Of a DNA stretch of 64,000 nucleotides, positions 4,012 to 42,800 are shown piece after piece (position 1 is the stretch's first letter; each line of letters opens with the position of its first letter). A program made the position numbers and the translations under genes. This stretch comes from Cyanobacteria bacterium P01_F01_bin.150 (GTDB lineage Bacteria; Cyanobacteriota; Cyanobacteriia; CAKZMO01), in assembly GCA_039189765.1 (NCBI GenBank), contig JBCCYL010000001.1:125020-189019 (forward strand), given 5' to 3'. Below the pieces are notes generated by a model that saw only the letters and a list, made by a program, of their open reading frames with translations, did not search any database and was not told where the DNA came from.

Positions 4012-6024
4012 GTGGGGTTTCGTTTTCAGTCTAAACAGAATAATGGTGTTGTGGGTGGGTCGCGTCCACGGCACTCGCCTAAAGCCGATCCCAAAAGCAT
4101 GGATAGGATCGGGTTAATACTGTGGCGATCGCTTCGGCCCTATTGGCTTGATACAGCACAACGATGGTCAGCCTGGGGCCTACTGTTCTTGTTATTACTG
4201 TTATCCATCGGTAGCAGCGCTGCTTTAATTTGGGAAACGATTGAACGGGGCAATATTTTATCTGCCCTAGCGGCCCAAGATGGGCAAAGATTTGCCAGCT
4301 CCATCATCATCTTTATTGGCTTGTTAATTGCGAGTGTTCTGCTTTTATCGTTCAAAACTTACGTGCAAGAACGTTTAGGGTTGAACTGGCGCAACTGGCT
4401 AACGCGACAAACCCTGAGCCAATATCTACAGCCCTATAAGTTCTATCAGCTTCAATATCCCATTGACAATCCTGATCAGCGTATTTCTGATGACCTTAAG
4501 ACGGTCTGTCAGGATTCACTAATGTTTCTCACGATTCTGTTCGACTCAGTGGTCCAGCTTATTGGCTTTGGCAGTGTTTTATGGCTAATTTCTAAGCCAT
4601 TGATGGGAATTTTAGTCACCTATGCAATAGCTGGTACCGTTGTCACTACCCTGATATTTGGTAGAGTCCTACTGGGCATCAACCGTCAGCGATTACAGCA
4701 GGAAGCTGATTTTCGCTATGGATTGATTCGAGTGAAAGAACAGGCAGAGGCGATCGCGTTTTATCAAGGTGCCTCAAACGAGTATGGTCAGGCTAAAATC
4801 CGTTTCCTAAATGCGTATCAAACAGTTCAGCGGCTCATTCGCTGGCAGTTTGGGCTAACCATTTTTCAAAATGGCTACCAGTACTTGACGTTTATTTTGC
4901 CGTTTATCATTCTAGCTCCTCAAATTTTTGCTGGGAACCAGGAAATCGGCACAGTGGTACAGTCCCAAGCCGCATTTGAGCGCATCGGCTTTGCCCTGGG
5001 CTTAGTCATCACCCAATTTGACAAGCTAAGTGCATTTGGAGCCGCAGTTAAGCGCTTAGATGGACTAAACAAAGGTTTAGAAAAGGCAGAAATAAAGGCA
5101 GAAATAAAGGCAGAAATAAAGGCAGAAGGCAGAAGGCAGAAGGCAGAAGAACCCACCCCTAGCCCCTCCCAGGAGGGGGACCGGAGTAGCCCAACGCCCC
5201 AACGCCCAACGCCCAACGCTCAACTCTCCAACTCTCCAACTCTCCAACTTCCCAACTTCCCAACGCCCCAGCTCTCCAACGCCCCAACGCCTCAACGCCC
5301 TATCCAAAATCTAAAATCTAAAGTTATTTCCTTTCAAAATTTAACGTTGACGACGTCGGCTAAAACGCTGGTGCGTGATTTATCCTTTGAGGTTGCGGAA
5401 GGGCGATCGCTTCTTATCACTGGAGCCAGTGGTGTGGGTAAAAGCTCATTGGTGAGGGCGATCGCAGGGTTATGGCAGTCAGGGGAAGGAGTGATCGGGG
5501 TTCCGCCCCGAGAGCAGCTCTTGTTTTTACCCCAGCGCCCCTATATGCCGTTGGGTGATTTGCGCTATCAGCTACATTATCCCCATCACCATGTTCAAAA
5601 ACAGACTGAGACATTTGACATCCGGTTATCGAACAAGCAGCTATCTAACGAGCAAATATCTAACCAGCGATTAAAAGATATTCTTGTTCAAGTTAATTTA
5701 GCCCATCTAACTGATTATTTAGGCAGTACAAATTCCGTATCTGCCCAAGAGTACGAGGATATGGACTGGTCACAAGTTCTTTCGCTTGGCGAACAACAAC
5801 GTCTTGCCATTGCCCGTGTTGTCCTTAATCCTCCGGTCTATGCCATCCTCGATGAAGCCACCAGTGCCCTCGACGAAGCCAACGAAGCCAACGTCTACCA
5901 GCTTCTGCAAACTCTCCCTACTACGCTTATCAGCATTGGTCATCGCCCCTCACTCACTGCTTATCACCAAACCCTCCTCACCCTCAACCCAGACGCTACC
6001 TGGACCTTAAAATCTATCCCGTAG
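4012..6024 (+). CDS. ABC transporter ATP-binding/permease protein, TMD-NBD half-transporter of the SbmA/BacA/ABCD (ABC_membrane_2) type
   Basis: 670-aa ORF. The N-terminal region contains hydrophobic, transmembrane-like stretches (LLFLLLLLSIGSSAALIW, IIIFIGLLIASVLLL). Walker A is GASGVGKSS, the ABC signature LSLGEQQRLAIARVVL, Walker B AILDEATSALD and the H-loop IGHRPSL. Its paralogous relationship to the next gene supports a start at ATG 4099 (MDRIGLILW...) rather than 4012. Confidence 0.85.
   Translation: MGFRFQSKQNNGVVGGSRPRHSPKADPKSMDRIGLILWRSLRPYWLDTAQRWSAWGLLFLLLLLSIGSSAALIWETIERGNILSALAAQDGQRFASSIIIFIGLLIASVLLLSFKTYVQERLGLNWRNWLTRQTLSQYLQPYKFYQLQYPIDNPDQRISDDLKTVCQDSLMFLTILFDSVVQLIGFGSVLWLISKPLMGILVTYAIAGTVVTTLIFGRVLLGINRQRLQQEADFRYGLIRVKEQAEAIAFYQGASNEYGQAKIRFLNAYQTVQRLIRWQFGLTIFQNGYQYLTFILPFIILAPQIFAGNQEIGTVVQSQAAFERIGFALGLVITQFDKLSAFGAAVKRLDGLNKGLEKAEIKAEIKAEIKAEGRRQKAEEPTPSPSQEGDRSSPTPQRPTPNAQLSNSPTLQLPNFPTPQLSNAPTPQRPIQNLKSKVISFQNLTLTTSAKTLVRDLSFEVAEGRSLLITGASGVGKSSLVRAIAGLWQSGEGVIGVPPREQLLFLPQRPYMPLGDLRYQLHYPHHHVQKQTETFDIRLSNKQLSNEQISNQRLKDILVQVNLAHLTDYLGSTNSVSAQEYEDMDWSQVLSLGEQQRLAIARVVLNPPVYAILDEATSALDEANEANVYQLLQTLPTTLISIGHRPSLTAYHQTLLTLNPDATWTLKSIP
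5077..5310. repeat. In-frame block of heptamer/octamer/12-mer tandem repeats (STRR-like) inside the ABC transporter linker
   Basis: GCAGAAATAAAG occurs 3 times, GGCAGAA 4 times, CCCAACG-type and CAACTCTC/CAACTTCC units follow, plus a ~58-nt unit (5145-5202) nearly identical to 6026-6083. The block translates as EIKAEIKAEIKAEGRRQKAEEPTPSPSQEGDRSSPTPQRPTPNAQLSNSPTLQLPNFPTPQLSNAPTPQRP without breaking the frame. Confidence 0.7.
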
Positions 6025-6184
6025 ACAGAAGAACCCACCCCTAGCCCCTCCAAGGAGGGGGACCGGAGTAGCCCAACTCCCCAGTTTTTCCGCTCCCCAA
6101 CTCCCCAACTCCCCAACTCCCCAACTCCCCAACTTCAAAATCCAAAATCCAAAATCCAAAATCCAAAATCGACCCAACCCTCCC
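6025..6184. repeat. Intergenic STRR-like tandem repeats (CCCCAACT x5, AAAATCC x5) plus second copy of the ~58-nt GAAGAACCCACCCCTAGCCCCTCC.AGGAGGGGGACCGGAGTAGCCCAAC unit
   Basis: Read directly from the sequence. The unit contains the hairpin CCCCTCC(NAGG)AGGGGG. Heptameric short tandemly repeated repetitive (STRR) sequences are characteristic of cyanobacteria. Confidence 0.7.
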
Positions 6185-8704: not shown

Positions 8705-11700
8705 ATGCCAGTCGTTAGTTTAAGTACAAGTACCAATTTCAGCGGGTCAGAAAACGCCCTAATTGAAAATGAAGGTACAGAGCTAACTCTCACATTTAGC
8801 CTTGATGAGCCAGCGCCTGCTGGAGGGCTAAAGGTCTACGTTGACAGTGATGTTCCAGAAATCCTAAATCGCCTCAATCTAATTTTGTTGGCGTTTGACC
8901 CTTCCAGATTATCTAATCTGACTGCCAGTCAAGCAGCCTTTACAGATTTTTCTAACAGTGGATTCACCGCCACCATTAATGCGGGTGCCACTGAAGCTTC
9001 GGTCACTGTTCCGGTTTTCGATACAAATGAGTCGACCCCTGATCCCTTTTTCCCGGATACTTATGACGGATTAACGACAGCGACCTTTACGCTTAAGACG
9101 CGAGACCAGATCGACTCCGTTGACGAAACAAGTCCCAGAGGGAATACCGGAAACGATTTGGCGGCGATAGAGAACGATGGCGTTCCCGTAAGTGACTACA
9201 CCATTGGTACCGCGTCCAGCACCGTTCTATTTGTAGATGATGTCAGTCAGCTGCCTTCTGACCCCACACCCACACCCCCTCCCACACCCCCTCCCACACC
9301 CCCTTCGCCAGCGAACGGCTACGATGAAGCGACCAGTGGCGATATTTCTGATAATCCTTCTAATCCCATTGAGCTGGATCTTGCAGAAGGAACGACTCAA
9401 TTGTCTGCAACGACAGGCGGTGGTGATCAGGAATATGTAACCGTAACGGTTCCTGATGGCACTCAGCTTGATTCCATTACCGTGGACTCCTATTCCACTG
9501 GGGATGTGGCCTTTATCGGTGTTCAGGAAGGCAGCACCTTTACTGAGCCACTAGATAATAGTGCTGATGTGGGTGAGCTGCTTGGCTATGCCTTGTTTGA
9601 TAATGGCGACGAAGGGACTGACATTCTAGACAACATCGGTAGAGGTGATGGCGCAGAAGGGTTCACAGGTCCTTTGCCCAGCGGTACCTACACGTTTGCC
9701 CTTCAACAGTTGGGTGCCAGCAGCGACTACACTCTAGACTTTAATGTCTCTGAAGCGTCTGCTCCAACCCCCACTCCTCCTCCCACTCCAACCCCTACCC
9801 CTCCTCCTTCTGGTCCTCCGGTCGTCAGCTTTGAAGCTGTCCCGGCAACGATTTCTGAAGAAGCCCCCGCTGAGGATCGGCTGCTAAGGCTGGAGTTTTC
9901 TGTTGCTGGAGAAATTCCTGAAGGTGGTCTAGTAGTTCTCTTCGAAAACCTCTTTGGCATTACCGATCAGGCCGATAGCGAAGCTGAAGGAGCCGCCTTT
10001 GAAGGTTTAGGTCTAGCACCACCTTTTGACCAGGAAAATAATATTATCGGTATTCGCCTATTAGAAAACCAAGCTGCAATCCAGCTACCGATGATTAACG
10101 ACTTGGTTGAGGAGACAACCACGTTTGACTTCCGCTTGCTTGAGGGCGAGGGCTATGAGCTTGATCCGGACCAGAATGCAACGCTGTTCACCATCACTGA
10201 CGACAATGGTGGTCCCGGTGTTGGTCCGACCATCGGCTTATCGGTATCTGAAACCAACCTGGCAGAAGGTGATACCTTTACGGTCAACTTTGCAGTTGAT
10301 GGCACGATCCCAGCCGGGGGCATTGATGTCCTAGTAACAAGCGATGAAAGTGTTGCGGGTCCCCTTGGGCAGTTTGAATTGTCTAATCTTGAGACACTAC
10401 AGCTCTCTGGTGTTAGCAACCTGCGCCCCGGAGACGACCGTGGTCAAAGCTTTATTGCCACTATCACTGAGGCTAATGCATCAATTACCCTATCTGTCTT
10501 TGATGACATTATTGCAGAGGAACCGGTTGACATTCCATTTATTTTAGCCAACGGTGAGCTTTACGAAGTAGACCCCAACGCGGCTGACGTAACCCTAACC
10601 ATTTCTGATGAACCCCAACCCGTTGGTCCTACGGTTGGTATTTCCCTTGACAAGACCGACGCAGTTGAAGGGGATTCAGTCACTCTATCGTTCAATGTTG
10701 AAGGGGATATTCCTGACGGCGGCCTTACGGTTCTAGTTAACGACACCACTAGTGCTCGCACTGGTGCCAGAAGTCTAACTGAATTTGATATTGCCGGAGT
10801 TCAGCTCAGTGATGGCATTGATGGATTCCCCATTGCGGCTGAAGGCGACAGCGGTTTCTTCGTTACGTTAACTGCTGCAAATGCCAGCATCACTCTACCC
10901 GTAATTGATGACGGTGCAGATGAGGATGAGGCGCTAGAGATGTTCACCTTTGAGGTCATTGATGGTGAAGCCTATGAAGTCAGTGCTGATGCGGGTAGCG
11001 TAACGCTAAATATCAGCGATGCGGCACCTGTTGCCCCAACGGTCAGCCTGAGCACTGATGTGACTACGCTGATTGAATCCGAAGGGACGATTGTCACCTT
11101 TACCCTAGAAACATCCGGCACTCTTCCTGAGGTTGTCCTGGATGAGGATGGTGACTATGTCTCCGGTGGGTTACCTGTAACATTGCAGATTGATTCGGCT
11201 CAACTTGAGTGGTTCTTTGACTTTGACAACAACAGCCGTCCACGGACAAACGCTGAAACTGGTAGCTTCAATGAGGTTCTAGTCCTTGGCGATAACTCCA
11301 CAGGTATTGCTGGCGGTCGCTTGATTGGTACATTGCTGCCACCCGATTTCAACACGGTGGAGCTGACTCTCACAGAGAGCACTGCGTCCTTCCAGTTTGA
11401 AGTCTTTGACGACGTATTTGCTGAAGCGAATGAGGACATTACGTTCACCTTGTTGGGTGGTGATGGCTACGAAGTCGCAGCAGACGCCACTCCTGTAACC
11501 CTGACCCTACAGGATAGTCCTGATGGAACAATTGACGGCACGACTCCTGTTGTTAGCCTATCCGTCGATAGCACTACTGTTGCAGAGGGAGACGCTCTAA
11601 CGGTTACCTTTAACGTGACTGGCGATATTCCTGACGGCGGTCTTCTTGTCTTTGTTGACAGTAATGCCTCTGGAGTACTGGGTGAGTTTAATCCAGACGA

Positions 11701-20201: not shown

Positions 20202-23200
20202 ATGACAATAATTAATCTGAGCGCAAGTCCTACAACCCTAATTGAAGACCAGGGGACGCGAGTTACCTTTCAAATCTCTTTGAGTGAGGCACCTCCTACT
20301 AATGGTTTACAGGTTAACTTTGGGACAGGTAAGGACAGAGGATTAGCGGACTTTTTGGTACTTCCTGCGGATGGTGCAGTATATGACGGAGCTTTCCCAG
20401 TTGCGTCTTTTCCCGATTTAAGTGGGGTTACTCTTCTGATTACCTCACAAAATCCGACTATTTCATTCAACATTTTTGATGATGCTGATCTTCCGGCTGA
20501 TGATCCAAATGCAACCGTCAATGATGATGTTGGAGAAGAGCAGACTACCTTCTCTATTTTGCCTGGTGATGGCTACACCGTTGGTGATAATGGCTCCGTA
20601 ACGCTAACGCTTCTAGATACGGAAGGTGCTGAAGGCGGTGAAGGTGCTGAAGGCGGTGAAGGTGCTGAAGGCGGTGAAGGTGCTGAAGGCGGTGAAGGTG
20701 CTGAAGGCGGTGAAGGTGCTGAAGGCGGCGAAGGTGCTGAAGGCGGCGAAGGTGCTGAAGGCGGTGAAGGTGCTGAAGGCGGTGAAGGTGCTGAAGGCGG
20801 CGAAGGTGCTGAAGGCGGCGAAGGTGCTGAAGGCGGTGAAGGCGGTGAAGGTGCTGAAGGCGGTGAAGGTGCTGAAGGCGGTGAAGGTGCTGAAGGCGGC
20901 GACGTCACCGTTAGCTTTAGTACGACCTCTGGTACCCTCAGCGAAGTCGATGGCCCTGCACTGGTACTCAACTTCAGTGTGGATGGCGAAATCCCTGAAG
21001 GTGGCATCACAGTCAACCTGGAAGGAGATACTGCCGAGATTCTCCAGCAGTTCTTGGCTCCAGATGGCGATGGTGCAGTCCAAACTCGAGTTACCGAAGA
21101 AGGCACTACCCTTTATCGCTTTGACACGTCGTTTGTCCCTGGCGCGGGAATTGAAGGCGGAACACTGGATGTGTTCTCCCTGGAAGATGGCGACCCAGCA
21201 GAAGACAACTCTAACCCAGCAGCAGCAGGGACTGGCTTCTTAAGCAACTTTAGCTTCACCATCACCGAATCGACAGCTAGTATTACCTTGCCAGTGTCTG
21301 ATGACATTGTCCAAGAGGCGGACCAAACTTTCAGCTACACACTTGTAGCAGGGGATGGTTACACCGTAGACCCAACTCAAAACTCAGGTACATTCACCGT
21401 AACGGATGGGGTCACTCCTGCCACATCCCCAACCGTTGGTGTTGTAGTTAGTGAAACCAACCTAGTCGAAGAAGAGCAAACCAGAACAACGCTTACCTTC
21501 ACCACAGCGGGAGACATCCCTGCTGAAGGACTGTTGGTTCAGTTGCAAGGACCAACCAGGGCCGTCGCTGAATTTGACGTTAATGGCACGAATAATACCC
21601 AGCCTCGTTTGCCGGAAGATGAATTAGAGGTAACTGGTCCGGTTGTCACCGGCGGTAATATCGCTGGTACCGATGAAGTAGCCGGTTCGGTATTCTTCCG
21701 AATTGCAGAACCCACAGCATCTATAGATATCGCTGTCTTTGATGATGATGTGATTGAAGGCACTGAAAATCTGACCTTCACCCTAGTTGATGGCGAAGCC
21801 TATGAAGTTGACTCTGCGGCCAGCTCCATTGCAGTGACTATTACTGATAGTGATGGTTTTGAAGGTTACCAGCCTGGTGATGCAGCTAGATTAGTAACTC
21901 CCCCTGCTCCTGCTCCAACCAATCCTGGAGAACAAGCTAATGCTGACTTTGTAGATCAGCTTGAAGGTGAGGAACTTCTTGACGAACTACAAGACGGTGG
22001 TTATGTAATCTACTTCCGTCATGCCATGACCGAGCGCGACTTCGCGGATCAAGTCACAGCAGATGTTAACGATTTTTCCACTCAGAGGGTACTGAGTGAG
22101 TTTGGTATACAACAATCCCTCGCTATCGGTGAAGGTTTTGAACTAGCTGAAATTCCTGTTGGCTCTGTAACCACTAGTGATTATGGCCGTGCTGTTAAGA
22201 CTGCTGCGATCGCATTTGGTGAGTACCAGAAAGACTCTGCGCTGAACTTCCTGCCATTTGAAGACTACACCGATGCACAAATCGAAGAGATGCGGGCTAA
22301 TGTACTGCCTTTCTTGACTACAGAACCAGAAGCTGGAGAAAACAGCGTCATCGTTGGTCACGATGATCTCTTTGAGGCTGGAACGGGCATTTATCCTGAT
22401 CCACAGGGTATTGCTTATATTCTTGACCCAGACGGTATGGGTGGTTTCGAAATTGTTGCTAACCTACTGCCTGAGGAATGGGTTGAGCTAGCTGAAGGCG
22501 GCGAAGGTGCTGAAGGTGGCGAAGGTGCTGAAGGTGGCGAAGGTGCTGAAGGTGGCGAAGGTGCTGAAGGTGGCGAAGGTGCTGAAGGCGGCGAAGGTGC
22601 TGAAGGCGGCGAAGGTGCTGAAGGCGGCGAAGGTGCTGAAGGTGGCGAAGGTGCTGAAGGTGGCGAAGGTGCTGAAGGTGGCGAAGGTGCTGAAGGTGGC
22701 GAAGGTGCTGAAGGTGGCGAAGGTGCTGAAGGTGGCGAAGGTGCTGAAGGCGGCGAAGGTGCTGAAGGCGGTGAAGGTGCTGAAGGCGGTGAAGGTGCTG
22801 AAGGCGGCGAAGGTGCTGAAGGTGGCGAAGGTGCTGAAGGCGGCGAAGGTGCTGAAGGCGGCGAAGGTGCTGAAGGCGGCGAAGGTGCTGAAGGCGGTGA
22901 AGGTGCTGAAGGCGGTGAAGGTGCTGAAGGCGGCGAAGGTGCTGAAGGCATCACCGTAGACATTAGCAGCAGTCCAAATGTTTTAGTTGAGGAAGATGGC
23001 ACAAACCTAACTGTATCCTTTGAACTAAGTGAAGCGGCTCCAGCGGGTGGTCTACGGGTGTTCGTGGATAGCGATATTCCAGGAATCGTCAGCCGATTGA
23101 ATCTACCTTTCTTTGCCTTTAACCCTCAGGTGGAGAATGTCGATCCGTCATCCTTCGTCACATCCTTTGATAACTCTGGATTTGCCCTCACTATTGATGA

Positions 23201-26200
23201 AGGATCAACTGGAGCATCTTTTACTATTCCAGTCTTCGATAATGCTGAGCCTGCTGATATAGCCCCTGAAGTGTTCGATGGGCTAGTTGAAGCTACGTTC
23301 ACGCTGCAAACAGAGGTCAGCACTGAAGATCAGACTGATGTTGGTACTCTAGGTGATTACAGTGTTGGCGATGGAGTAACAGCCGTTGTTTTCGCAGACA
23401 CAGCTAGTCAGCTTGAAGGCGCTGAAGGCGGTGAAGGTGCTGAAGGCGGTGAAGGTGCTGAAGGCGGTGAAGGTGCTGAAGGCGGTGAAGGCGGTGAAGG
23501 TGCTGAAGGCGGTGAAGGTGCTGAAGGCGGCGAAGGTGCTGAAGGCGGCGAAGGTGCTGAAGGCGGCGAAGGTGCTGAAGGCGGCGAAGGTGCTGAAGGC
23601 GGCGACGTCACCGTTAGCTTTAGTACTACCTCTGGTACCCTCAGCGAAGTAGATGGTCCCGCACTGGTATTGAACTTCAGTGTGGATGGCGAAATCCCTG
23701 AAGATGGCGTTACAGTCAACATAGAAGGGGATACTGTAGAGATTCTTCAACAGTTCTTGGCTCCAGATGGCGATGGTGCAGTGCAAACTCGGGTTACCGA
23801 TCAGGGCACTACCCTTTATCGTTTTGACACTTCCTTCGGTCCTGATGCGGGACTTGAAGGTGGAACGCTGGATGTATTCTCCCTGGAAGATGGCGACCCA
23901 GCGGAAGACAACTCCGACCCAGCGGCAGCCGGAACAGGTTTCTTGAGCAACTTTAGCTTCACCATCACCGAATCGACAGCTAGCATTACCTTGCCAGTGT
24001 CTGATGATATTGTTCAAGAGGCAGACCAGACCTTTAGCTACACACTTGTAGAAGGGGATGGTTACACCGTAGACCCAACTCAAAACTCAGGTACATTCAC
24101 CGTCACCGATGGAGTCACTCCTGCTACATCACCAACCGTTGGTGTTACAGTCAGTGAAGCCAACCTAGTCGAAAACGAGCAAACCAGAACAACACTTACC
24201 TTCACTACTGAGGGGGATATCCCTGCTGAAGGGCTGCTGGTTCAGCTACAAGGATCGGCCAGAGCCGTTGCTGAGTTTGACGTGAATGGCACGAATAATA
24301 CCCAACCTCGTTTGCCGGAAGATGAGTTAGAGGTAACAGGTCCTATTGTCACAGGCGGTAACATTGCTGGTACCGATGAGGTAGCCGGTTCGGTATTCTT
24401 CCGAATTACAGAACCTACAGCAACCATAGATATCGCTGTCTTCGATGATATTGTGGCTGAAGGCACTGAGAACTTGACCTTCAACCTAGTTGATGGCGAA
24501 GCCTATGAGGTTGACTCTGCAGCTAGCTCCATTGATGTGACTATCGTTGATGACAACGGCGACCTTGACGACGTCACCGTTAGCTTTAGCACCACTTCTG
24601 GCATCCTTAGTGAAGTCGATGGCCCTGCCTTGGTGCTGAACTTCAGTGTGGATGGCGAAATCCCTGACGGTGGTGTCACAGTCAACCTGGAAGGGGACAC
24701 TGCAGAAATTCTGCAGCAGTTCTTGGCTCCGGATGGCGATGGTGCGGTTCAAACTCGGGTTACCGATGAAGGCACTACCCTTTATCGCTTTGATACCTCC
24801 TTTGGCCCTGATGCGGGACTTGTAGGTGGAACACTGGACGTATTCTCCCTAGAAGATGGTGACCCAGCGGAAGACAACTCTGATCCAGCGGCAGCCGGAA
24901 CAGGCTTCTTGAGCAACTTTAGCTTCACTATCACTGAGGCAACAGCCAGCATTACCTTGCCAGTGTCGGATGACATTGTTCAAGAGGCGGACCAAACCTT
25001 TAGCTACACACTCGTAGCAGGGGATGGTTACATCGTAGACCCAACTCAAAATTCAGGGACATTCACCGTCACTGATGGGGTCACTCCTGCCACATCGCCA
25101 ACCGTCGGTGTTGCAATCAGTGAAACCAACTTAGTTGAAGACGAGCAAACCAGAACAACGATTACCTTCACCACAGAAGGAGACATCCCTGCCGAAGGAC
25201 TGTTGGTTCAGCTGCAGGGTTCTGCCAGAGCCATCGCTGAGTTTGATGTGAATGGCACAAATAACACCCAGCCTCGTTTGCCAGAAGGCGAATTAGAGGT
25301 AACGGGTCCTGTTGTCACAGGCGGTAATATCGCTGGTACTGACGAAGTAGCCGGTTCAGTGTTCTTCCGAATTACAGAATCTACAGCATCAATAGACGTC
25401 GCTGTCTTTGATGATGATGTGGAAGAAGGCACTGAGAATCTGACCTTTACACTAGTGGATGGTGAAGCCTATGAGGTTGACTCTGCGGCCAGCTCCATTG
25501 CAGTGACTATCGAGGATGGTGATAGCTTTGAGGGTTACCAGCCTGGTGACGCTGCTAGATTAGTCACTCCTCCTGCTCCTGCTCCAACAAATGAGGGAGA
25601 GCAAGCTAATGCTGACTTTGTCGATGTATTAGAAGGTGAAGAACTCCTGGATGAGCTACAAGACGGTGGGTACGTAATCTACTTCCGTCATGCCATGACA
25701 GAGCGCGACTTCGCGGATCAGGTCACAGCAAATGTCGATGACTTCTCTACTCAAAGGGTTGTCAGTGAATTCGGAGTCCAGCAATCCCTGGCCATTGGCG
25801 AAGGATTTGAGGCAGCCGAGATTCCCGTTGGTTCTGTAACCACCAGTGACTATGCTCGTGCAATTGAAACTGCGGCGATCGCGTTCGGTGAGTATCAGAA
25901 GGATTCTGCACTGAACTTCCTGCCGTTTGAGGACTACACTGATGCGCAAATCGAAGAGATGCGGGCTAATGTGCTGCCTTTCTTAACGGCGGAACCAGAA
26001 GCCGGTACAAACAGCGTCATCGTTGGTCACGACGATCTCTTTGAAGCTGGAACGGGCATCTATCCTGATCCTCAGGGTATTGCTTACGTTCTTGACCCCG
26101 ATGGTGACGGTGGTTTTGAGATTGTTGCCAACCTATTGCCTGAAGAGTGGATTGAACTGGCTGAATTTGATGGAGGCGACGCTCCTGCTGACATCGACTT

Positions 26201-26669
26201 TGACGAGGTCTTGGAAGTGGGTGATGTGGTCACAGACCAATTTGAGGGTCTAACCATTTCAACGCCTAACAACGAATTTGGTGCGATGATCTTCGACAGT
26301 GCTAACCCCACAGGCGGAGACAAGGACCTCTTAGCACCTGAATTGGGCAACGTTCTGATCATCTCTGAGGATGGTGACAGTGCTGATCCGGACGACAACA
26401 TGAGAGGTGGTACGCTGAGCTTCGATTGGGATGACCTAGTCAATGTTGACAAGGTTGGTTTCCTCGATATCGAAGAGCAGGGCGGCTCTATCAAGCTGTA
26501 CGGCGTTGACGATGTCCTCATTCAGGAAATTGCTATTCCTGGTATGGGCGATAACAGCATCCAAGACGTATCCATCGGCGTATCTGGTGTATCTCGTATG
26601 GATGTCATGCTTGCCGGTAGTGGAGCATTAACTGACATCAGCTTCCTCAGCTCAACAGATGCTGCATAG
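20202..26669 (+). CDS. Giant (2155 aa) modular protein: Calx-beta-like N-terminus, three GEGAEG tandem-repeat arrays, internally triplicated ~1-kb module, two embedded histidine-phosphatase-like domains, family C-terminal domain
   Basis: Single uninterrupted ORF. The N-terminus (LIEDQGTRVTFQISLSEAPPTNGLQVNF...) resembles the gene at 343. The segment DVTVSFSTTSG(T/I)LSEVDGPALVLNFSVDGEIP... occurs 3 times. FRHAMTERD...VIVGHDDLF occurs twice. The tail is ...LAGSGALTDISFLSSTDAA*. Confidence 0.85.
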   Translation: MTIINLSASPTTLIEDQGTRVTFQISLSEAPPTNGLQVNFGTGKDRGLADFLVLPADGAVYDGAFPVASFPDLSGVTLLITSQNPTISFNIFDDADLPADDPNATVNDDVGEEQTTFSILPGDGYTVGDNGSVTLTLLDTEGAEGGEGAEGGEGAEGGEGAEGGEGAEGGEGAEGGEGAEGGEGAEGGEGAEGGEGAEGGEGAEGGEGAEGGEGGEGAEGGEGAEGGEGAEGGDVTVSFSTTSGTLSEVDGPALVLNFSVDGEIPEGGITVNLEGDTAEILQQFLAPDGDGAVQTRVTEEGTTLYRFDTSFVPGAGIEGGTLDVFSLEDGDPAEDNSNPAAAGTGFLSNFSFTITESTASITLPVSDDIVQEADQTFSYTLVAGDGYTVDPTQNSGTFTVTDGVTPATSPTVGVVVSETNLVEEEQTRTTLTFTTAGDIPAEGLLVQLQGPTRAVAEFDVNGTNNTQPRLPEDELEVTGPVVTGGNIAGTDEVAGSVFFRIAEPTASIDIAVFDDDVIEGTENLTFTLVDGEAYEVDSAASSIAVTITDSDGFEGYQPGDAARLVTPPAPAPTNPGEQANADFVDQLEGEELLDELQDGGYVIYFRHAMTERDFADQVTADVNDFSTQRVLSEFGIQQSLAIGEGFELAEIPVGSVTTSDYGRAVKTAAIAFGEYQKDSALNFLPFEDYTDAQIEEMRANVLPFLTTEPEAGENSVIVGHDDLFEAGTGIYPDPQGIAYILDPDGMGGFEIVANLLPEEWVELAEGGEGAEGGEGAEGGEGAEGGEGAEGGEGAEGGEGAEGGEGAEGGEGAEGGEGAEGGEGAEGGEGAEGGEGAEGGEGAEGGEGAEGGEGAEGGEGAEGGEGAEGGEGAEGGEGAEGGEGAEGGEGAEGGEGAEGGEGAEGGEGAEGGEGAEGITVDISSSPNVLVEEDGTNLTVSFELSEAAPAGGLRVFVDSDIPGIVSRLNLPFFAFNPQVENVDPSSFVTSFDNSGFALTIDEGSTGASFTIPVFDNAEPADIAPEVFDGLVEATFTLQTEVSTEDQTDVGTLGDYSVGDGVTAVVFADTASQLEGAEGGEGAEGGEGAEGGEGAEGGEGGEGAEGGEGAEGGEGAEGGEGAEGGEGAEGGEGAEGGDVTVSFSTTSGTLSEVDGPALVLNFSVDGEIPEDGVTVNIEGDTVEILQQFLAPDGDGAVQTRVTDQGTTLYRFDTSFGPDAGLEGGTLDVFSLEDGDPAEDNSDPAAAGTGFLSNFSFTITESTASITLPVSDDIVQEADQTFSYTLVEGDGYTVDPTQNSGTFTVTDGVTPATSPTVGVTVSEANLVENEQTRTTLTFTTEGDIPAEGLLVQLQGSARAVAEFDVNGTNNTQPRLPEDELEVTGPIVTGGNIAGTDEVAGSVFFRITEPTATIDIAVFDDIVAEGTENLTFNLVDGEAYEVDSAASSIDVTIVDDNGDLDDVTVSFSTTSGILSEVDGPALVLNFSVDGEIPDGGVTVNLEGDTAEILQQFLAPDGDGAVQTRVTDEGTTLYRFDTSFGPDAGLVGGTLDVFSLEDGDPAEDNSDPAAAGTGFLSNFSFTITEATASITLPVSDDIVQEADQTFSYTLVAGDGYIVDPTQNSGTFTVTDGVTPATSPTVGVAISETNLVEDEQTRTTITFTTEGDIPAEGLLVQLQGSARAIAEFDVNGTNNTQPRLPEGELEVTGPVVTGGNIAGTDEVAGSVFFRITESTASIDVAVFDDDVEEGTENLTFTLVDGEAYEVDSAASSIAVTIEDGDSFEGYQPGDAARLVTPPAPAPTNEGEQANADFVDVLEGEELLDELQDGGYVIYFRHAMTERDFADQVTANVDDFSTQRVVSEFGVQQSLAIGEGFEAAEIPVGSVTTSDYARAIETAAIAFGEYQKDSALNFLPFEDYTDAQIEEMRANVLPFLTAEPEAGTNSVIVGHDDLFEAGTGIYPDPQGIAYVLDPDGDGGFEIVANLLPEEWIELAEFDGGDAPADIDFDEVLEVGDVVTDQFEGLTISTPNNEFGAMIFDSANPTGGDKDLLAPELGNVLIISEDGDSADPDDNMRGGTLSFDWDDLVNVDKVGFLDIEEQGGSIKLYGVDDVLIQEIAIPGMGDNSIQDVSIGVSGVSRMDVMLAGSGALTDISFLSSTDAA
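20626..20897. repeat. Perfect 18-nt tandem repeat array encoding (GEGAEG)n, ~15 units
   Basis: GGTGAAGGTGCTGAAGGC units with synonymous GGC/GGT variation and one 9-nt half unit. The array is in frame inside the gene at 20202. Confidence 0.9.
21985..22440 (+). other. Embedded histidine phosphatase (PGAM/SixA-superfamily)-like domain, copy 1, within gene 20202
   Basis: The N-terminal catalytic-His motif reads YVIYFRHAMTERDF (RH[G/A]xT). The C-terminal His motif reads SVIVGHDDLF about 120 aa downstream, with SDYGRAVKTA in between. Confidence 0.5.
22489..22950. repeat. Perfect 18-nt tandem repeat array encoding (GEGAEG)n, ~26 units
   Basis: GGCGAAGGTGCTGAAGGT/GGC units, in frame inside the gene at 20202. 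Confidence 0.9.
23413..23610. repeat. Perfect 18-nt tandem repeat array encoding (GEGAEG)n, ~11 units
   Basis: Same unit as the arrays at 20626 and 22489, and it contains the same 9-nt half-unit irregularity as the first array. Confidence 0.9.
25655..26110 (+). other. Embedded histidine phosphatase-like domain, copy 2, within gene 20202
   Basis: Near-identical duplicate of copy 1 (YVIYFRHAMTERDF ... SVIVGHDDLF). Confidence 0.5.
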
Positions 26670-26957: not shown

Positions 26958-27620
26958 ATGATTGTTGAAATTCCTAATGTTTTTTCTCAAAATGAAGTAA
27001 AAGATATTGTTGATAAACTTTCTGCCTCAGAATTTATTGATGGAAAGAAAACGGCGGGTTGGAATGCTCGGGCTGTTAAGAATAATGAGCAGCTCAAAGC
27101 CAGTGATCCTGCTGCTGCTGCTCTCAAGGAGATGGTGAAAACGAAGCTCAACAAAAACTTTCGTTTTCAGTCAACGGTTCGCCCAAAGAATATCCATACT
27201 CTGCTGTTTAGTCGGTACGAAGTCGGCATGTCCTATGGGCGACATAATGACAATGCAATGATGTCGGGGAAATGGCGAACTGATGTTTCCTTCACCATCT
27301 GGCTAACTGCCCCTGAAACCTACAAGGGAGGAGACTTAGTTATTGAAGGCCCAAGTCGTGAATCATCCTATCGTTTAGCCGCAGGGTCAGCCATTACCTA
27401 TCCATCCTCAACTCTCCACCGTGTTGATCCAATTACTGAGGGAAGTCGATGGGCGATCGTAGGCTGGGTCCAGAGTTGGATAAGAGACCCGGCCCATCGC
27501 GAAATTCTATATGATTTGGATACAGCTCGTCGCTCCATTTTTGATACCCATGGCAAAAATAAAGAATTTGATTTGGTGTCTAAGAGCTTAACTAATCTAC
27601 TGCGTAGCTGGATGGAGTAA
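26958..27620 (+). CDS. PKHD-type hydroxylase, Fe(II)/2-oxoglutarate-dependent dioxygenase (YbiX/PiuC family, prolyl-4-hydroxylase-related)
   Basis: 220-aa ORF. The HxD motif reads YGRHNDNA and the distal His is in SSTLHRVDP. Overall length and layout match the ~225-aa YbiX family. Confidence 0.7.
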   Translation: MIVEIPNVFSQNEVKDIVDKLSASEFIDGKKTAGWNARAVKNNEQLKASDPAAAALKEMVKTKLNKNFRFQSTVRPKNIHTLLFSRYEVGMSYGRHNDNAMMSGKWRTDVSFTIWLTAPETYKGGDLVIEGPSRESSYRLAAGSAITYPSSTLHRVDPITEGSRWAIVGWVQSWIRDPAHREILYDLDTARRSIFDTHGKNKEFDLVSKSLTNLLRSWME

Positions 27621-28471: not shown

Positions 28472-31400
28472 ATGGTACAAGTCAATTTAGCGACTTCAAC
28501 GAACTTTAGCGGTGATGCTAATGCCGTTATTGAGGATCAAGGCAATGAGCTAACGTTTGAATTTAGCCTAGATGAGGCAGCCCCTGCAGGAGGCTTAAAG
28601 GTTTATGTTGATAGCAATGTTCCGGAGATCTTAAATCGATTTAATCTACTAGCGTTAGCCTTTGACCCTTCTAGGTTTTCCAATCTAACAACCAACCAGG
28701 AGTCGTTCACCGATTTCTCCAACAGTGGTTTCTCGGTGACCATTAACGCTGGTGCAACGGAAGCCTCAGTCACTATTCCGATTTTTGACACTGATGAGTC
28801 AATCCCCGATCCGTTCTTCCCAGAGACCTATGATGGATTGACAACGACAACGTTTACCCTCAAGACGCGAGATCAAATTGACTCTGCCGATGAGACAAGC
28901 CCCAGGGGGAGCACAGGAAATGATTTGGACTCCGTAGAAGGTGATGGTGTCCAGATTAGCGACTACACCATTGGTACCGCTTCAAGTACCGTTCTGATTG
29001 CAGATACGGTCAGTCAGTTACCTGGGCCTGTACCAACCGATGGCTATGACGAAGCTGTTAGTGGAGACATTTCAAACGATCCCAGCAGCCCTCTTAGCTT
29101 GCCTTTAGCTGAAGGGACGACAAGTCTGTCGGCAACCACAGGTAACGCAGACCAGGAGTATGTAACCGTCACGGTTCCAGATGGCTTTGAACTTGAATCG
29201 TTAGTGCTTGAGTCTTACTCCCCATCCGATGTTTCCTTTATTGGCGTGCAAGAAGGCACAACCTTTACCGAGCCACTGGACAACAGCGCAACGCTTAGCG
29301 AATTTTTAGGCTACACCCTATTTGGCATTAGTGCTATTGGCACTGACATTCTAGACAATATTGGCAACGGCTCCAATGGTGCAAACTTTGGTGGGCAGGG
29401 ATTTGAAGGGCCACTACCTTCCGGTGACTATACGTTTGCCATACAGCAGCTTGGTGGTCCTAGCGATTACGAATTAAGCTTCAATATTGCTGCTGTTGAT
29501 GACGGCGATGGCGGCGGCGATGGCGGCGATGGCGGCGGCGATGGCGGCGATGGCGGCGGTGGTGACGGCGGCGGTAACGATGGGCCTCCCGTAGTTAGCT
29601 TTGAAGTGGTGCCAAACACCTTCTCAGAAGAGTCCGCAAACAATTTAGTCGAATGGAAGTGGACCGTTACCGGTGAGTTCCCCGAAGATGGCCTCATCGT
29701 CAACCTCGATACCTCTGGAGGAGATGAACCCTTTGCCTTTACTGGACAATTTGCCGCTCAACCCGAACCCGAATTTATCAACGCAGACATCGTTGATTTT
29801 GACTTTAGCGGCAGACTCAATATTCAGCTATCCGAGCCTGAAGCATCATTTAAGCTCTACTTTATTGACGACATCATTGAAGAAGGCACCCAAACCTTTG
29901 AATTCCGACTTGTAGATGGCGAAGGCTACACCGTAGACTCAGCCCTCAACGGCAGTGTCTTTACCATTACTGATGATAATGGGGGTCCCGGTTTCGGTCC
30001 CACCGTTGGTCTGTCCGTGTCCGAGACGGACTTGGCCGAAGGCGACCCTCTAACCGTTACCTTTACGACTGAAGGTGATATTCCTGATGACGGGGTACAG
30101 GTCCTGGTTCAAAGTGATGTATTTGGTGCTCTGGGGCAATTTGAGCTAGCCGACCTAAACAACATCACCACCACTGGCATTGCAGGCTTGCCTGAAGTCG
30201 GTGACGGGGGCGGCAGTAGTTTCTTGGTCACCATCACCGACCCCATCGCAACAATTGATCTAAGCGTCTTTGATGACATCTTGTCGGAAGACCCTCTCGA
30301 TATCGCATTCACTCTGGCCAATGGTGAAGAATATGAGGTAGACCCTGACGCTGCCGGTGTGACCCTAACCATTTCCGATGAAGTTCAGCCTGCCGGACCG
30401 ACGGTTGGGCTGAGCGTTGATAAAACCACCGTAGTAGAAGGTGAGGCATTGACCCTCACTATTGCCGTGGACGGAGAGATTCCTCCAGAGGGATTACAGG
30501 TTCTGATTAATGATGTGGACAGCGTGCAAAATCAAGTCAGAAGTCTGACTGAGTTTGATATTGCCAGCGTGCAAACGGAAGGGATTGATGGGTTCCCCAT
30601 CCCTGCAGAGGGCGACAGCGGGTTCTTTGTAACAGTCACTGAACCTACGGCTACGATTACGCTAAATGCATTTGATGAGGGTGCGGACGAAGACGAAGCG
30701 GCTGAATCATTTACCTTTGCGGTGATTGATGGAGAAGCCTATGAGGTAGACCCAGATGCCAGCGGTGTCACGGTCAACATTGTTGACGTAGCTGACGCTT
30801 CAGAGACGCCCGTCGTCACTCTCACCGTAACGCCGCTTGCTAGTGAAGATGACAATCAAACCATAACTCTTACTTTCAATGTTGAAGGGGAAATCCCAAC
30901 AGATGGGCTACCCATTACAATTGAGGGTGACTTTCTAACCCTGTTTGATCCACAACTTCGCCTGCTTAATCAAAATATTCCTTTGGCAATTGAACCAGCG
31001 ACCGGTCTTGTCCCCATCGCCAATCGAGGCAGCGAATTTGATATTGCGCTTACAGCGCCGGAAGTAACCGTTTCTGTTGTCCTCTTTGATGACATCCTTG
31101 AAGAAGAAGCTCTGGAACTAAGTTTCGCGGTATCAGAAGGAGATGGCTATATTGTTGGTGGAGATGGCCCAGCAACCGTTACCATTGTGGACGGTGATAG
31201 TGTGACTCCTGGCAGCGGTCCAACTGTTAGCCTCTCGGTCACCAACACTAGTGTGGCAGAAGGTGATGAGCTTACAGTTAACTTTGATGTGGATGGTGCC
31301 ATCCCGGATAGCGGTCTTACTGTTTTTGTAGATGGTCCTCCTGCGGCAATCGGCGAATTCGCAATCTTTGATGAGAACAACAATCCATTGGTTACGACTG

Positions 31401-39840: not shown

Positions 39841-42800
39841 ATGTACTCAGAATCAGTTAGTGGCGACATTACTAACAATCCCAATGATCCCCTGGCTTTG
39901 CCCCTTGAAGAGGGAGCCAATTCTCTCTCTGCAACAACTGGAAATGGTGACCAAGAATACGTTACTGTTACGGTCCCAGCGGGATTTGAGCTTGAGTCAC
40001 TGACCCTAAGCTCATTCTCTTCCGGCGGCGATTCAGCCTTTATTGGAGTTCAATCCGGGACTACTTTTACAGAGCCGCTGGAAGATGGTGCTAACGTTGG
40101 CAATATTTTAGGTTATGCCCTCTTTTCTGGGGGACAGGTTGGCACAAATATCCTCGACAACATCGGTAACGGAGCAGGGGCGATCGGGTTTGATGGTACT
40201 CTACCGGCTGGAGAGTACACCTTTGCCCTACAGCAGCTTAGTGGTCCTACTGATTACGAGCTAACCTTCAATGTTGCCGCTGTGGATGAGGGCGGTGACG
40301 GTGGCGATGGCGGTGACGGTGGTGATGGCGGCGATGGCGGCGATGGCGGCGGGGGCTTACCTGTAGTCAGCTATGAAGCAGTACCTGCTGTATTCTCAGA
40401 AGAGGCAGACAATAATTTAGTCGAATATAAGTTCTCAGTGGATGGTGAGCTTCCGGAAGGGGGGCTTGTTATTAAGTTCAAGTCATTTGGCAATAACGAC
40501 TTTATTGAATGGTCAAATCAGTTTGCAGCGGCCCCTGGTCCAGAACTCGTAAACCTAGAGTTTGCAGATTTTACGTTTAATCCAGAGACTGGACTACTAG
40601 ATGATTTTGATCTACTAATAACGGACACCGAAGCATCGTTTCAGATTTATCTGATTAATGACATCGTGGAAGAAGGCTCCCAGGTGTTTGACTTCCGCGT
40701 TGTCGAGGGAGAGGGCTACATCGTTGATCCAAATCAATCGCCTTTATTTACGATCAATGATGATAATGGTGGCCCTGGCGTTGGTCCCACCATCGGCCTG
40801 TCGGTATCTGAAACAAATCTGGCTGAGGCGGATAGCCTTACCGTTACCTTTGATGTGGATGGAGATATTCCACCCGAAGGGGTACAGGTGCTGGTTCAAA
40901 GCGACGTTGGTGGCTCCCTTGGTCAGTTTGATTTAGCAAATCTGAACAATATCACCACCACTGGGATTGAAGGATTACCTGAAGTGGGGGATGCAGGGGG
41001 CGGTAGCTTCTTTGCCACGCTTACGGCATCGACTGCCACCATTACCCTGGATGTCTTTGATGACATTGTGGCTGAGGACCCTTTAGACATTACTTTTACC
41101 CTGGCTAACGGTGAGGTTTACGAAGTGGACCCCGATGCCGCTAGCGCAACCCTAACGATTTCTGACCAGGAACAGCCCGCAGGTCCCACTGTAAGCCTAA
41201 GCGTAGACAACACTGATTTAGTAGAAGGGGGTGACCCAGTTACCCTCTCTATCGCTGTGGATGGAGCCATCCCTGACGGTGGGTTGCCAGTGCTCATTAA
41301 TGATGTCACCAGCGCTCAGTCAGGAGTCAGAAGTCTGACTGAATTTGACGTGGCGAATGTTATTACGGCTGGTCTTAGCGGCTTTCCTGAACCGGCGGAA
41401 GGAGACAGCGGTTTCTTTGTCACGGTTGTTGAGTCCTCAGCGACTATTACCCTTGGGGCTATTGATGAAGGCGCGGATGAGGATGAATCGCTGGAAAACT
41501 TTACCTTTGAGGTGATTGATGGTGAAGCCTATGAGGTGGATGCAGATGCCGGTAGCGTAACGGTTAGCATTACCGATGCTGCTGATGCTGGCGACGGTGG
41601 CTCTGGCGGTGGTGATGGCATAATGCGTCAAATTGTTGACGGTAACACAAGTATCTCCCTCGATTTGGATGCCTTGGGATTAACCCTAGTGTCTGAGGAT
41701 AGTAGCGGTACCCCCGCCGATGGCTTTGCCCTGGGGTTCGATATCCTGGATGACGAAACTACGTTTGAAATTGCCACAGATCCAGTTGCCTTTGACAGCG
41801 GCACAATCGAGCACTTTGGCTCCGTTACCCTGGGATTGGGGGATGCGGAAGTTACCATCGGAGATTTTTCCATTGGTTTTGATCCCGCGCGAGTATCCGA
41901 TACGGCCAGCGGCTTCTTTGTCTCCGATACCCTTGAGGACGATTTAGGGCTAGAGGTCTTGTTTGATCTGGGTAACCCAGCCATCAGTTTATCTGAGGAT
42001 CAAACCACGCTGGATGTGGGCGGAGATCTGCTCCTTTCTCCAGAACTTGCGTCAGCCCTAGGCTTAGAGGCTGGCATTGATGTGGGTGATGCCTTAGTCG
42101 AGAGTCTGGTCAGAGATCCAGCCGAGACTCCAGTGATATCCATCAGTTTTGTCCCTGCGTCTGAAATCGATCCAGATACGGGGGATACAGTCATTAACGA
42201 AGACGATGGCCGAGAGGTGGCACTGCGGCTATCCTATGATGCGGGTGTCATTCCTCCCGGTGGATATGCTGTTGCTTGGATTCTGGATGTAGACGATTTA
42301 TTTGCTGTTCCTGGCCTCTTTGATGGCAATCGTCCTGCTGGGTTCGAAGAGAATGCCTATCGACTTATTGAACCCCGTGATGACGAGAACGACCCCGGTG
42401 GCACTAAATTCGTGCTTGCACCCCGACAGCTAGAATCCGATCTGTTCTTCTCCATTTTTGACGACATTATTGAAGAAGAACCCATTACTTTAAATCTGGG
42501 CCTCCAGGCAGAAGAAGAGGGCTATGAACTCGGGACGTCGCTTGTAACGATCAGACTCCAAGATGGGCCTAGTGCAACCCCTGGTGAGGGACCAACCGTT
42601 GACCTCTCTGTCGATAGTACAGAAGTTGATGAAGGCGGTGAGTTTACGGTCAACTTTGATGTGGAGGGTGCGATTCCCGATGGTGGTCTCACTGTCTTTG
42701 TCGATGGGCCGCCTGCGGCGTTAAGTGAATTTAATATCTTTGGTGACGATGGGATTGACCCAGAAACAGATATAGTTGGACTCGCTGGCTTCCCCGAGGC

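Follow-up and report, generated by a model that had tools for sequence, protein, structure and literature searches.

In-frame 18-nucleotide tandem repeats encode predicted disordered acidic spacers between domains of a giant modular protein in a marine cyanobacterium

Main finding

We analysed 64,000 nucleotides (nt) of DNA from Cyanobacteria bacterium P01_F01_bin.150 (assembly GCA_039189765.1, contig JBCCYL010000001.1, positions 125,020 to 189,019 of the forward strand; hereafter the window, with position 1 as its first letter), which come from a single contig of a metagenome-assembled genome (MAG). Within one open reading frame (ORF), encoding a protein of 2155 amino acids (aa), lie three arrays of an 18-nt tandem repeat. 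Our reading, to which we assign a probability of about 0.7, is that these arrays are in-frame repeats of the variable-number tandem repeat (VNTR) type that encode disordered, polyanionic Gly/Glu/Ala spacers at three inter-domain junctions. As a feature, the VNTR-encoded disordered interdomain spacer is commonplace; the arrays stand out for their unusual length, and they offer a clean and extreme case of slippage-prone DNA building and resizing such spacers in giant modular proteins. The source cyanobacterium is of the marine filamentous type, and the array-bearing protein is probably extracytoplasmic, a location that we infer.

Three arrays share one reading frame

Tandem Repeats Finder (TRF) delimited period-18 arrays at 20622-20899 (15.9 copies), 22491-22949 (25.5 copies) and 23414-23602 (11.0 copies), which we call R1, R2 and R3 (Table 1); all three are read in frame 1 of the ORF. 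A preliminary description of this DNA, made from the letters alone, had reported perfect arrays of about 15, 26 and 11 copies. TRF and unit matching established that the three arrays are real and that these counts and the accompanying coordinates were accurate to within a few bases, apart from the end of the third array, placed at 23610 and actually lying near 23603. The degenerate unit GGYGAAGGTGCTGAAGGY has 48 exact matches, every one on the plus strand and inside the three arrays, against a chance expectation of 0.00 matches in 100 dinucleotide-preserving shuffles. The encoded peptides contain only Gly, Glu and Ala, arranged as (GEGAEG)n. The word perfect applies to the peptide and to a consensus that is Y-degenerate; it does not apply to the DNA, in which the units differ by T or C at two Gly third positions. 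Written as a string of unit types, R1 is aaaaabbaabb|aaa, R2 is ccccbbbccccccbbaacbbbbaab and R3 is aaa|aabbbb, with type c (GGC...GGT) restricted to R2.

R1 and R3 each contain a 9-nt half unit, and its sequence is identical in the two arrays (GGT GAA GGC), as had been claimed. Its relative position is not the same, since 11 units precede it and 3 follow it in R1, as against 3 and 6 in R3, and GEGGEG-type irregularities arise independently in other species too. The proposal that R1 and R3 were duplicated together is nevertheless supported, though by other evidence than the shared irregularity, whose premise was wrong: a segment at 20693-21841 recurs at 23414-24544 with 88.8% identity, and its left end lies inside the array. 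Self-BLAST gave 86-89% nucleotide identity for the internal segmental duplications of the gene.

Every 18-nt or 9-nt change is in frame, and so, as predicted, the reading frame is kept at any copy number. The other frames across the arrays yield KVLKVA/KVLKAA on the plus strand and PSAPSP, AFSTF and LQHLRR on the minus strand. These products account for seven overlapping ORFs in the mechanical ORF list, and spurious ORFs of the kind that had been foreseen (PSAPSP, KVLK...) were thus found on both strands.

Arrays sit at domain junctions and are predicted to be disordered

The AlphaFold model, of the monomer, covers aa 1-566 and was built on an alignment of 22 sequences. It contains three beta-sandwich domains arranged around R1, for which the predicted local distance difference test (pLDDT) score is mostly 80-97, whereas aa 144-231 of R1 score below 50 (block means 32-38, about 33) and form coil without secondary structure. 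The arrays carry a charge of -0.333 per residue and have a mean hydropathy of 0.38 versus the Uversky boundary of 0.533, which places them deep in the disordered region. Predicted disorder and charge, the two properties that the preliminary description had singled out for its acidic spacers, are thus both borne out.

The array borders coincide with the borders of domains. R2 begins 3 residues past the point at which stand-alone homologues of the preceding histidine phosphatase (HP) domain end (...LLPEEWSQF in the homologue P0032; LLPEEWxxF generally) and stops where a copy of the N-terminal domain, A', begins, while R1 and R3 both run up to DVTVSFSTT, the conserved sequence that opens domain B. 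Flanked by HP ends, the A' start and the DVTVSFSTT start, the arrays occupy the domain junctions exactly. The earlier picture of pure Gly/Glu/Ala hexapeptide repeats at domain boundaries accordingly survives, with R2 adjoining the HP end and R1 set by the model between folded beta-sandwiches. Each array is an in-frame, low-complexity tandem repeat between independently folded domains, and linker length varies among homologues at the same junction; in these respects the arrays match the generic VNTR-encoded disordered interdomain linker. Among homologues, the linkers at 24 HP-to-next and 18 X-to-B junctions measure about 0-35 aa, some of them with AEGAE or AEGGEGE seeds, and short non-acidic Pro/Thr linkers are also used at matching junctions.

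On these grounds we propose that the short G/E/A-rich linkers found at these junctions in relatives may represent the starting state. From it, a 9-nt tripeptide seed (GSY GAA GGY) would have been amplified into the alternating 18-nt unit, presumably via replication slippage and/or unequal recombination, and the arrays would since have continued to be homogenised and resized through the gain and loss of adjacent units, each 18- or 9-nt event altering the length of a spacer alone. With Gly making up 50% of its residues and one residue in three negatively charged, the peptide is expected to behave as an expanded, flexible and highly soluble tether that could both separate the flanking modules and repel them electrostatically.

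Units turn over faster than their flanks diverge

Codon usage within the arrays is uniform. All 103 Glu codons are GAA (0 GAG; GAA:GAG is 99:52 elsewhere in the gene), all 51 Ala codons are GCT (0 other; GCT:other is 58:101 elsewhere in the gene), and Gly is encoded by GGT or GGC only (0 GGA/GGG). The co-duplicated flanks serve as an internal clock: their proportion of synonymous differences (pS) is 0.33-0.41 for B-C and 0.53 for HP, so that 33-53% of synonymous sites have diverged while the arrays are still codon-uniform. If the arrays had aged with their flanks, about one third of their synonymous sites would be expected to differ, and their uniformity therefore implies that units turn over faster than substitutions accumulate.

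The distribution of unit variants leads in the same direction. Variants are clustered in R2 (9 runs vs 16.5 expected, P=0.001) and in R3 (P=0.017), and the confinement of type c to R2 is significant (Fisher P=2.6e-4); such clustered, array-specific variants are the footprint of local duplication within each array. R1 and R3 also differ in the number of units on each side of their shared irregularity. The arrays clearly gain and lose units over evolutionary time, faster than point substitution. For comparison, VNTR loci of E. coli O157:H7 mutate at 4.4e-5 to 1.8e-3 per generation, with higher rates above about 13 units (PMC3777172), which makes slippage and variability plausible for the arrays here and is not a demonstration of them. 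If the arrays do vary within populations, they would provide useful strain markers and a natural experiment on tether length in extracellular enzymes.

The preliminary description had called the arrays hypermutable and likened them to a contingency locus. The likeness holds insofar as a simple tandem repeat lies within a gene. It fails for the switching that such loci perform: the units are multiples of three, which makes on/off switching of the gene impossible, and 18- or 9-nt changes alter only the length of a spacer. With in-frame units, a single MAG, variant-interrupted arrays and no hairpin potential, the label hypermutable and contingency-like goes beyond the data.

The repeat recurs at other loci of marine cyanobacteria

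Scans of genomes and metagenomes for the repeat DNA recovered 4 + 1 loci, none of them the same locus: four other marine cyanobacterial MAGs and one marine metagenome contig share the DNA unit and its codons, at junctions different from those here. Their arrays precede HP, separate HP from RTX repeats, lie between blocks of RTX repeats or immediately follow a signal peptide. In loci L002 to L006 they are 30-90 aa long and keep the xEG triplet phase, and lineage-specific Ser variants occur in related arrays (TCT in L004, TCC in L003). This recurrence at other loci identifies the 9-nt, tripeptide xEG repeat as the basic element, a linker type that recurs in this cyanobacterial clade, is resized rapidly and shows lineage-specific expansion.

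A protein search with the pure repeat returned one weak unrelated match (P0068), HMMER bias filters rendering that search uninformative, and a literature search for the peptide motif returned noise only. The (xEG)n linkers form a small, apparently undescribed family, found in secreted proteins of the histidine-phosphatase, RTX and Calx-beta types in marine cyanobacteria. Homologous HP proteins carry signal peptides at their N-terminus (L005, L006-type proteins and P0032), which supports an extracytoplasmic location for the array-bearing protein.

In addition, (xEG)n arrays occur in a different secreted family, at about 1196-1357 of L003 (JBCAWO010000118.1) and at 1071-1214 of L006 (the marine metagenome contig). 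Both directly precede a conserved ...DYMTVLGLMKGHL.../...ELVLMKGHLRAANEL... domain that looks helical, and in L006 a signal peptide at the N-terminus comes before the array. More than one protein family therefore carries this type of array.

Points against the spacer reading, assembly artefact and neutral expansion

Several observations weigh against reading the arrays as VNTR-type spacers of an extracytoplasmic protein. Polymorphism is unseen and the gene is known from the single MAG contig: the search for B-C-HP homologues returned no orthologue with the same architecture, and the exact 2155-aa protein has no record in the protein/assembly collection. Copy numbers lack independent confirmation because the source is a short-read MAG, and in two of the related MAGs (L002 and L004) the arrays abut contig ends. 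The uniform codons of the arrays are also the commonest codons of the gene, which makes some codon-level selection possible. T/C variants interrupt the arrays every 125 nt or less, so slippage should be slower than in pure arrays, and the array DNA has no hairpin potential, as both strands fold worse than shuffled sequences (z +1.7 and +2.1). The 2155-aa protein has no N-terminal signal peptide or recognised secretion signal. Finally, we infer the spacer function from composition and position only.

Hairpin-driven instability of the arrays was considered as a separate candidate and is ruled out by the same folding scores. The best B-C-HP homologues are 81-86% identical, over single domains only. 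The 220-aa oxygenase encoded next to the array gene had an identical counterpart only on one 2.8-kb Logan contig (SRR22824305), which starts after the array gene and stops short of the arrays.

Mis-assembly had been named at the outset as something that would undo the description. Repeat lengths and period-run lengths reveal no collapsed-loop signature; two related MAG contigs do end in the repeat. Exact repeats in the window reach at most 110 nt, no k-mer of 111 nt or longer being repeated, and perfect period-18 runs extend to no more than 125 nt. Both values are below the maximum k of short-read assemblers (127/141), which implies a unique de Bruijn path; a collapsed loop would have left a periodic run of at least k, and assembly of a collapsed repeat was rejected on this basis. 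More broadly, the arrays or their copy numbers could be a de Bruijn-graph artefact of metagenome assembly. The nature of the source speaks for such an artefact, as do the sibling contigs of L002 and L004 that break inside the repeat, a sign that assemblers struggle with it, and the 125-nt periodic run falling just below k=127, as if only resolvable arrays survive. Yet a 6.5-kb ORF runs uninterrupted through the arrays, whose positions coincide exactly with domain junctions; independent assemblies of other organisms, made with different assemblers, contain the repeat in five further contigs; and the structured pattern of unit variants is unlike that of a chimeric assembly, so we consider an artefact improbable. 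For such loci in general, short-read MAG assemblies break or mis-size the arrays, and gene callers add spurious overlapping ORFs.

A further alternative accepts the arrays as real and denies them a selected role: slippage-prone linker DNA would have grown simply because a disordered linker can be of any length. At homologous junctions, linkers indeed range from about 0 to 153 aa without conservation, and one HP-to-next junction of this very protein has no array. Set against such neutral runaway expansion are the retention or re-expansion of the repeat type in several species and protein contexts and the share of the protein that the arrays take up (14%), which would be costly if useless. We rate it as unlikely, though as deserving some weight, and it overlaps the reading of the arrays as VNTR-type spacers.

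Cation binding and collagen-like structure

The acidity of the arrays suggests another overlapping possibility, in which they would act as high-capacity, low-affinity segments for Ca2+/Mg2+ or other metal ions, and might buffer Ca2+ for Calx-beta/RTX modules or affect carbonate nucleation at the cell surface. The 103 Glu residues of the arrays, the net charge of the protein (-403), its Calx-beta-like domains, the placement of the same arrays between RTX Ca2+-binding blocks in L002 and L003, and the use of (DGG)n by neighbouring genes are all compatible with this idea. The arrays have no ordered binding motif, however, and homologues work with short non-acidic Pro/Thr linkers, which argues that the acidic array is dispensable for domain function. 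Taken together, we regard a cation-binding role as quite unlikely.

The arrays also have Gly at every third position, giving 31, 51 and 21 consecutive G-(A/G)-E triplets, and the 9-nt irregularity amounts to one triplet and leaves the phase unbroken. A collagen-like triple helix can therefore be envisaged, in which (GAE-GGE)n trimerises into rigid stalks, with Ca2+/Mg2+ from seawater as a possible stabiliser. When the repeat is searched against PDB sequences, nearly all the matches are collagens or collagen-like chains; the NCBIfam model of the collagen-like adhesin Scl2/SclB matches faintly (NF038329, 19.3 bits), the arrays of L002 to L006 retain the xEG triplet phase, and a gene for a hydroxylase of the 2-oxoglutarate/Fe(II) (2OG-Fe(II)) PKHD type lies directly downstream. 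These resemblances weaken on inspection. The NF038329 score compares with a cutoff of 325 bits, the PDB matches reflect periodicity and composition with high bias, and the repeat has no match to the Pfam Collagen model (PF01391), a search at E<=1 giving 0 families. The arrays lack Pro or any other imino acid as well as Lys/Arg, and Gly fills half of their X positions. Each triplet includes a Glu that no basic residue balances, a charge of -1 for every triplet in each chain. Judged by established host-guest measurements of collagen stability, an all-anionic helix of this kind should be very unstable. Moreover, the linkers of homologues break the triplet phase (GEGGEAGTPTE in P0015, GGEGGGE in P0032), no trimerisation domain was recognised in the protein, and the arrays offer the hydroxylase no Pro to act on. 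Membership of the collagen family is rejected on composition and model scores, and a collagen-like helix appears extremely improbable.

A bolder combination of these ideas would make (G-A/G-E)n a proline-free, polyanionic Gly-X-Y element that orders with Ca2+/Mg2+ (in a collagen-like or polyglycine-II-like form, or through compaction), its arrays serving as ion-responsive springs or stalks of giant surface proteins in cyanobacteria and, in the DNA, as recombination joints at which A, B-C, HP and RTX modules are shuffled from one such gene to another. The left breakpoint of the R1+B-C / R3+B-C duplication inside an array is consistent with arrays as module-shuffling joints; as a whole, we view this proposal as a long shot. 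If the arrays were cation-responsive or triple-helical, they would constitute a genuinely new structural element.

Comparison with known repeat systems

The Ser-Asp R region of the Clf/Sdr surface proteins of Staphylococcus is the closest functional analogue (PMC3098876). In both systems, acidic sequence of low complexity is repeated in frame over a long stretch, varies in copy number (here over evolutionary time) and would hold folded domains apart as a stalk or spacer. The Ser-Asp dipeptide itself is absent from the arrays, which consist of GEGAEG, with rare Ser in relatives only. Furthermore, the R region is single and stands beside an LPXTG wall anchor, whereas the cyanobacterial protein has three arrays between internal domains and ends in ...ISFLSSTDAA, without LPXTG. 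The clfA R region, too, has an 18-bp unit whose third positions vary.

Streptococcal Scl1/Scl2 and BclA of Bacillus anthracis resemble the arrays in their uninterrupted Gly-X-Y periodicity, and the collagen-like region of BclA is length-polymorphic among strains. The arrays differ from them in having no Pro/Thr, in being uniformly anionic and in having Gly in half of the X positions. Low-complexity linkers of modular extracellular proteins, such as those rich in Pro/Thr in glycoside hydrolases or the (DGG)n and Pro/Thr types encoded elsewhere in the window, similarly lie between beta-sandwich or catalytic modules and are compositionally biased, disordered and encoded by short tandem DNA repeats; the arrays are 3-10 times longer (63-153 vs about 15-30 aa) and far more regular in their DNA.

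The contingency loci of Moxon and colleagues share with the arrays a repeat within the gene of a probable surface or secreted protein and presumed slipped-strand mispairing. The unit here is a multiple of three, excluding on/off switching, and the array gene is known from one MAG contig. XTEN, a polypeptide engineered to be unstructured, soluble and expanded, has a nearly identical residue palette (A, E, G, P, S and T only) and a net negative charge. The analogy is physical only, as XTEN is engineered, deliberately non-repetitive and has no evolutionary relationship to the arrays.

Domain architecture of the array-bearing protein

The 2155-aa protein is extremely acidic and contains 7 Lys and 0 Cys, and its domains are arranged in repeated modules (Table 1). 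Foldseek searches with the modelled domains retrieved the Calx-beta domains CBD12 of NCX1/CALX and integrin leg domains, and the Pfam Calx-beta match to the B and C domains lies under the curated cutoff. The NCBIfam model NF004841 spans both HP copies (E=4.8e-173), while domain A, domain A' and the C-terminal domain match nothing in Pfam and NCBIfam. Ratios of nonsynonymous to synonymous change (dN/dS) of about 0.05-0.12 between internal paralogous domains indicate that the domains are under purifying selection.

Both HP domains carry RHA where the canonical motif is RHG. NF004841 is an uncharacterised NCBIfam equivalog (annotated as hypothetical protein) whose stand-alone members bear signal peptides, suggesting that NF004841 proteins are a family of extracytoplasmic phosphatases in marine cyanobacteria.

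Table 1. Features of the array-bearing gene and linkers of neighbouring giant genes, in window coordinates.
Feature	Coordinates	Strand	Protein positions	Description
Array-bearing ORF	20202..26669	+	2155 aa	A-[R1]-B-C-HP-[R2]-A'-[R3]-B-C-B-C-HP-Cterm
Domain A	20202..20621	+	aa 1-140	Beta-sandwich; AlphaFold strands aa 2-138
Array R1	20622..20902 (~281 bp)	+	aa 141-233 (93 aa)	31 Gly-X-Glu triplets; partial unit, 11 full units, 9-nt half unit, 3 full units
Half unit in R1	20835..20843	+		GGT GAA GGC (GEG); after 11 full units, before 3
B-C module, copy 1	20901..21857	+	aa 234-552	Two Calx-beta-like beta-sandwiches; AlphaFold pLDDT 80-97; Foldseek
HP1	21858..22490	+	aa 553-763	Branch-1 histidine phosphatase, PRK06193 type; RHA and GHDD motifs; PF00300 (His_Phos_1) E=7.9e-8
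Array R2	22491..22949 (~459 bp)	+	aa 764-916 (153 aa)	51 triplets; AEG + 25 full units, no irregularity
Domain A'	22950..23414	+	aa 917-1071	Divergent internal copy of A; start ITVDISSSPNVLVEEDGT parallels protein N-terminus MTIINLSASPTTLIEDQGT
Array R3	23415..23603 (~189 bp)	+	aa 1072-1134 (63 aa)	21 triplets; partial unit, 3 full units, 9-nt half unit, 6 full units
Half unit in R3	23484..23492	+		GGT GAA GGC (GEG); after 3 full units, before 6
B-C modules, copies 2 and 3	23604..25526	+	aa 1135-1455 and 1456-1775	Directly joined, no array between
HP2	25527..26165	+	aa 1776-1988	Second histidine phosphatase; followed by ELAEFDGGDAPAD, no array
C-terminal domain	26166..26666	+	~167 aa	No family match
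Linkers in neighbouring ORFs	29498-29590, 40285-40356, 46910-46999; also 766-867, 9254-9319, 9749-9820, 52593-52676			(DGG)n or Pro/Thr

Neighbouring genes in the window

The window is a cluster of giant modular genes on the same strand, with PPC, BatD/DUF11-like, Spondin_N, cadherin-like, beta-lactamase-like and RTX domains, together with two ATP-binding cassette (ABC) transporters. An N-terminus of the domain A type also opens several of the neighbouring giant ORFs. At their domain junctions, these ORFs carry (DGG)n linkers of 24-31 aa built from 9/18-nt units, or Pro/Thr linkers (Table 1), which are shorter cousins of the (GEGAEG)n arrays. The adjacent giant ORFs at 39841-46287 (2148 aa) and 46466-51967 (1833 aa) have an identical 119-aa N-terminus, pointing to recent tandem duplication or gene conversion within the cluster.

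The PKHD-type 2OG-Fe(II) dioxygenase mentioned above, which is prolyl-hydroxylase-like and 220 aa long, is encoded at 26958-27620 (plus strand), 289 nt past the array gene and between two giant genes. It could modify the giant proteins; the arrays themselves are free of proline.

One of the ABC transporter ORFs (4012-6024) contains an in-frame low-complexity insert at aa 357-430 (5082-5300), between its membrane and ATPase domains. The insert consists of a 12-nt repeat, AAAGGCAGAAAT (x3.8), and of two repeats whose units are not multiples of three, the 7-nt AAGGCAG (x4.4) and the 8-nt CCCAACGC (x14). A one-unit change in these repeats would shift the frame, which brings this insert nearer to a classical contingency locus than the GEGAEG arrays. 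An element of about 48 nt with a CCCCTCC(C/A)AGGAGGGG palindrome occurs both in this ORF and in the next intergenic region (6027-6170), where the palindrome copy is followed by CTCCCCAA x5 and CAAAATC x5.

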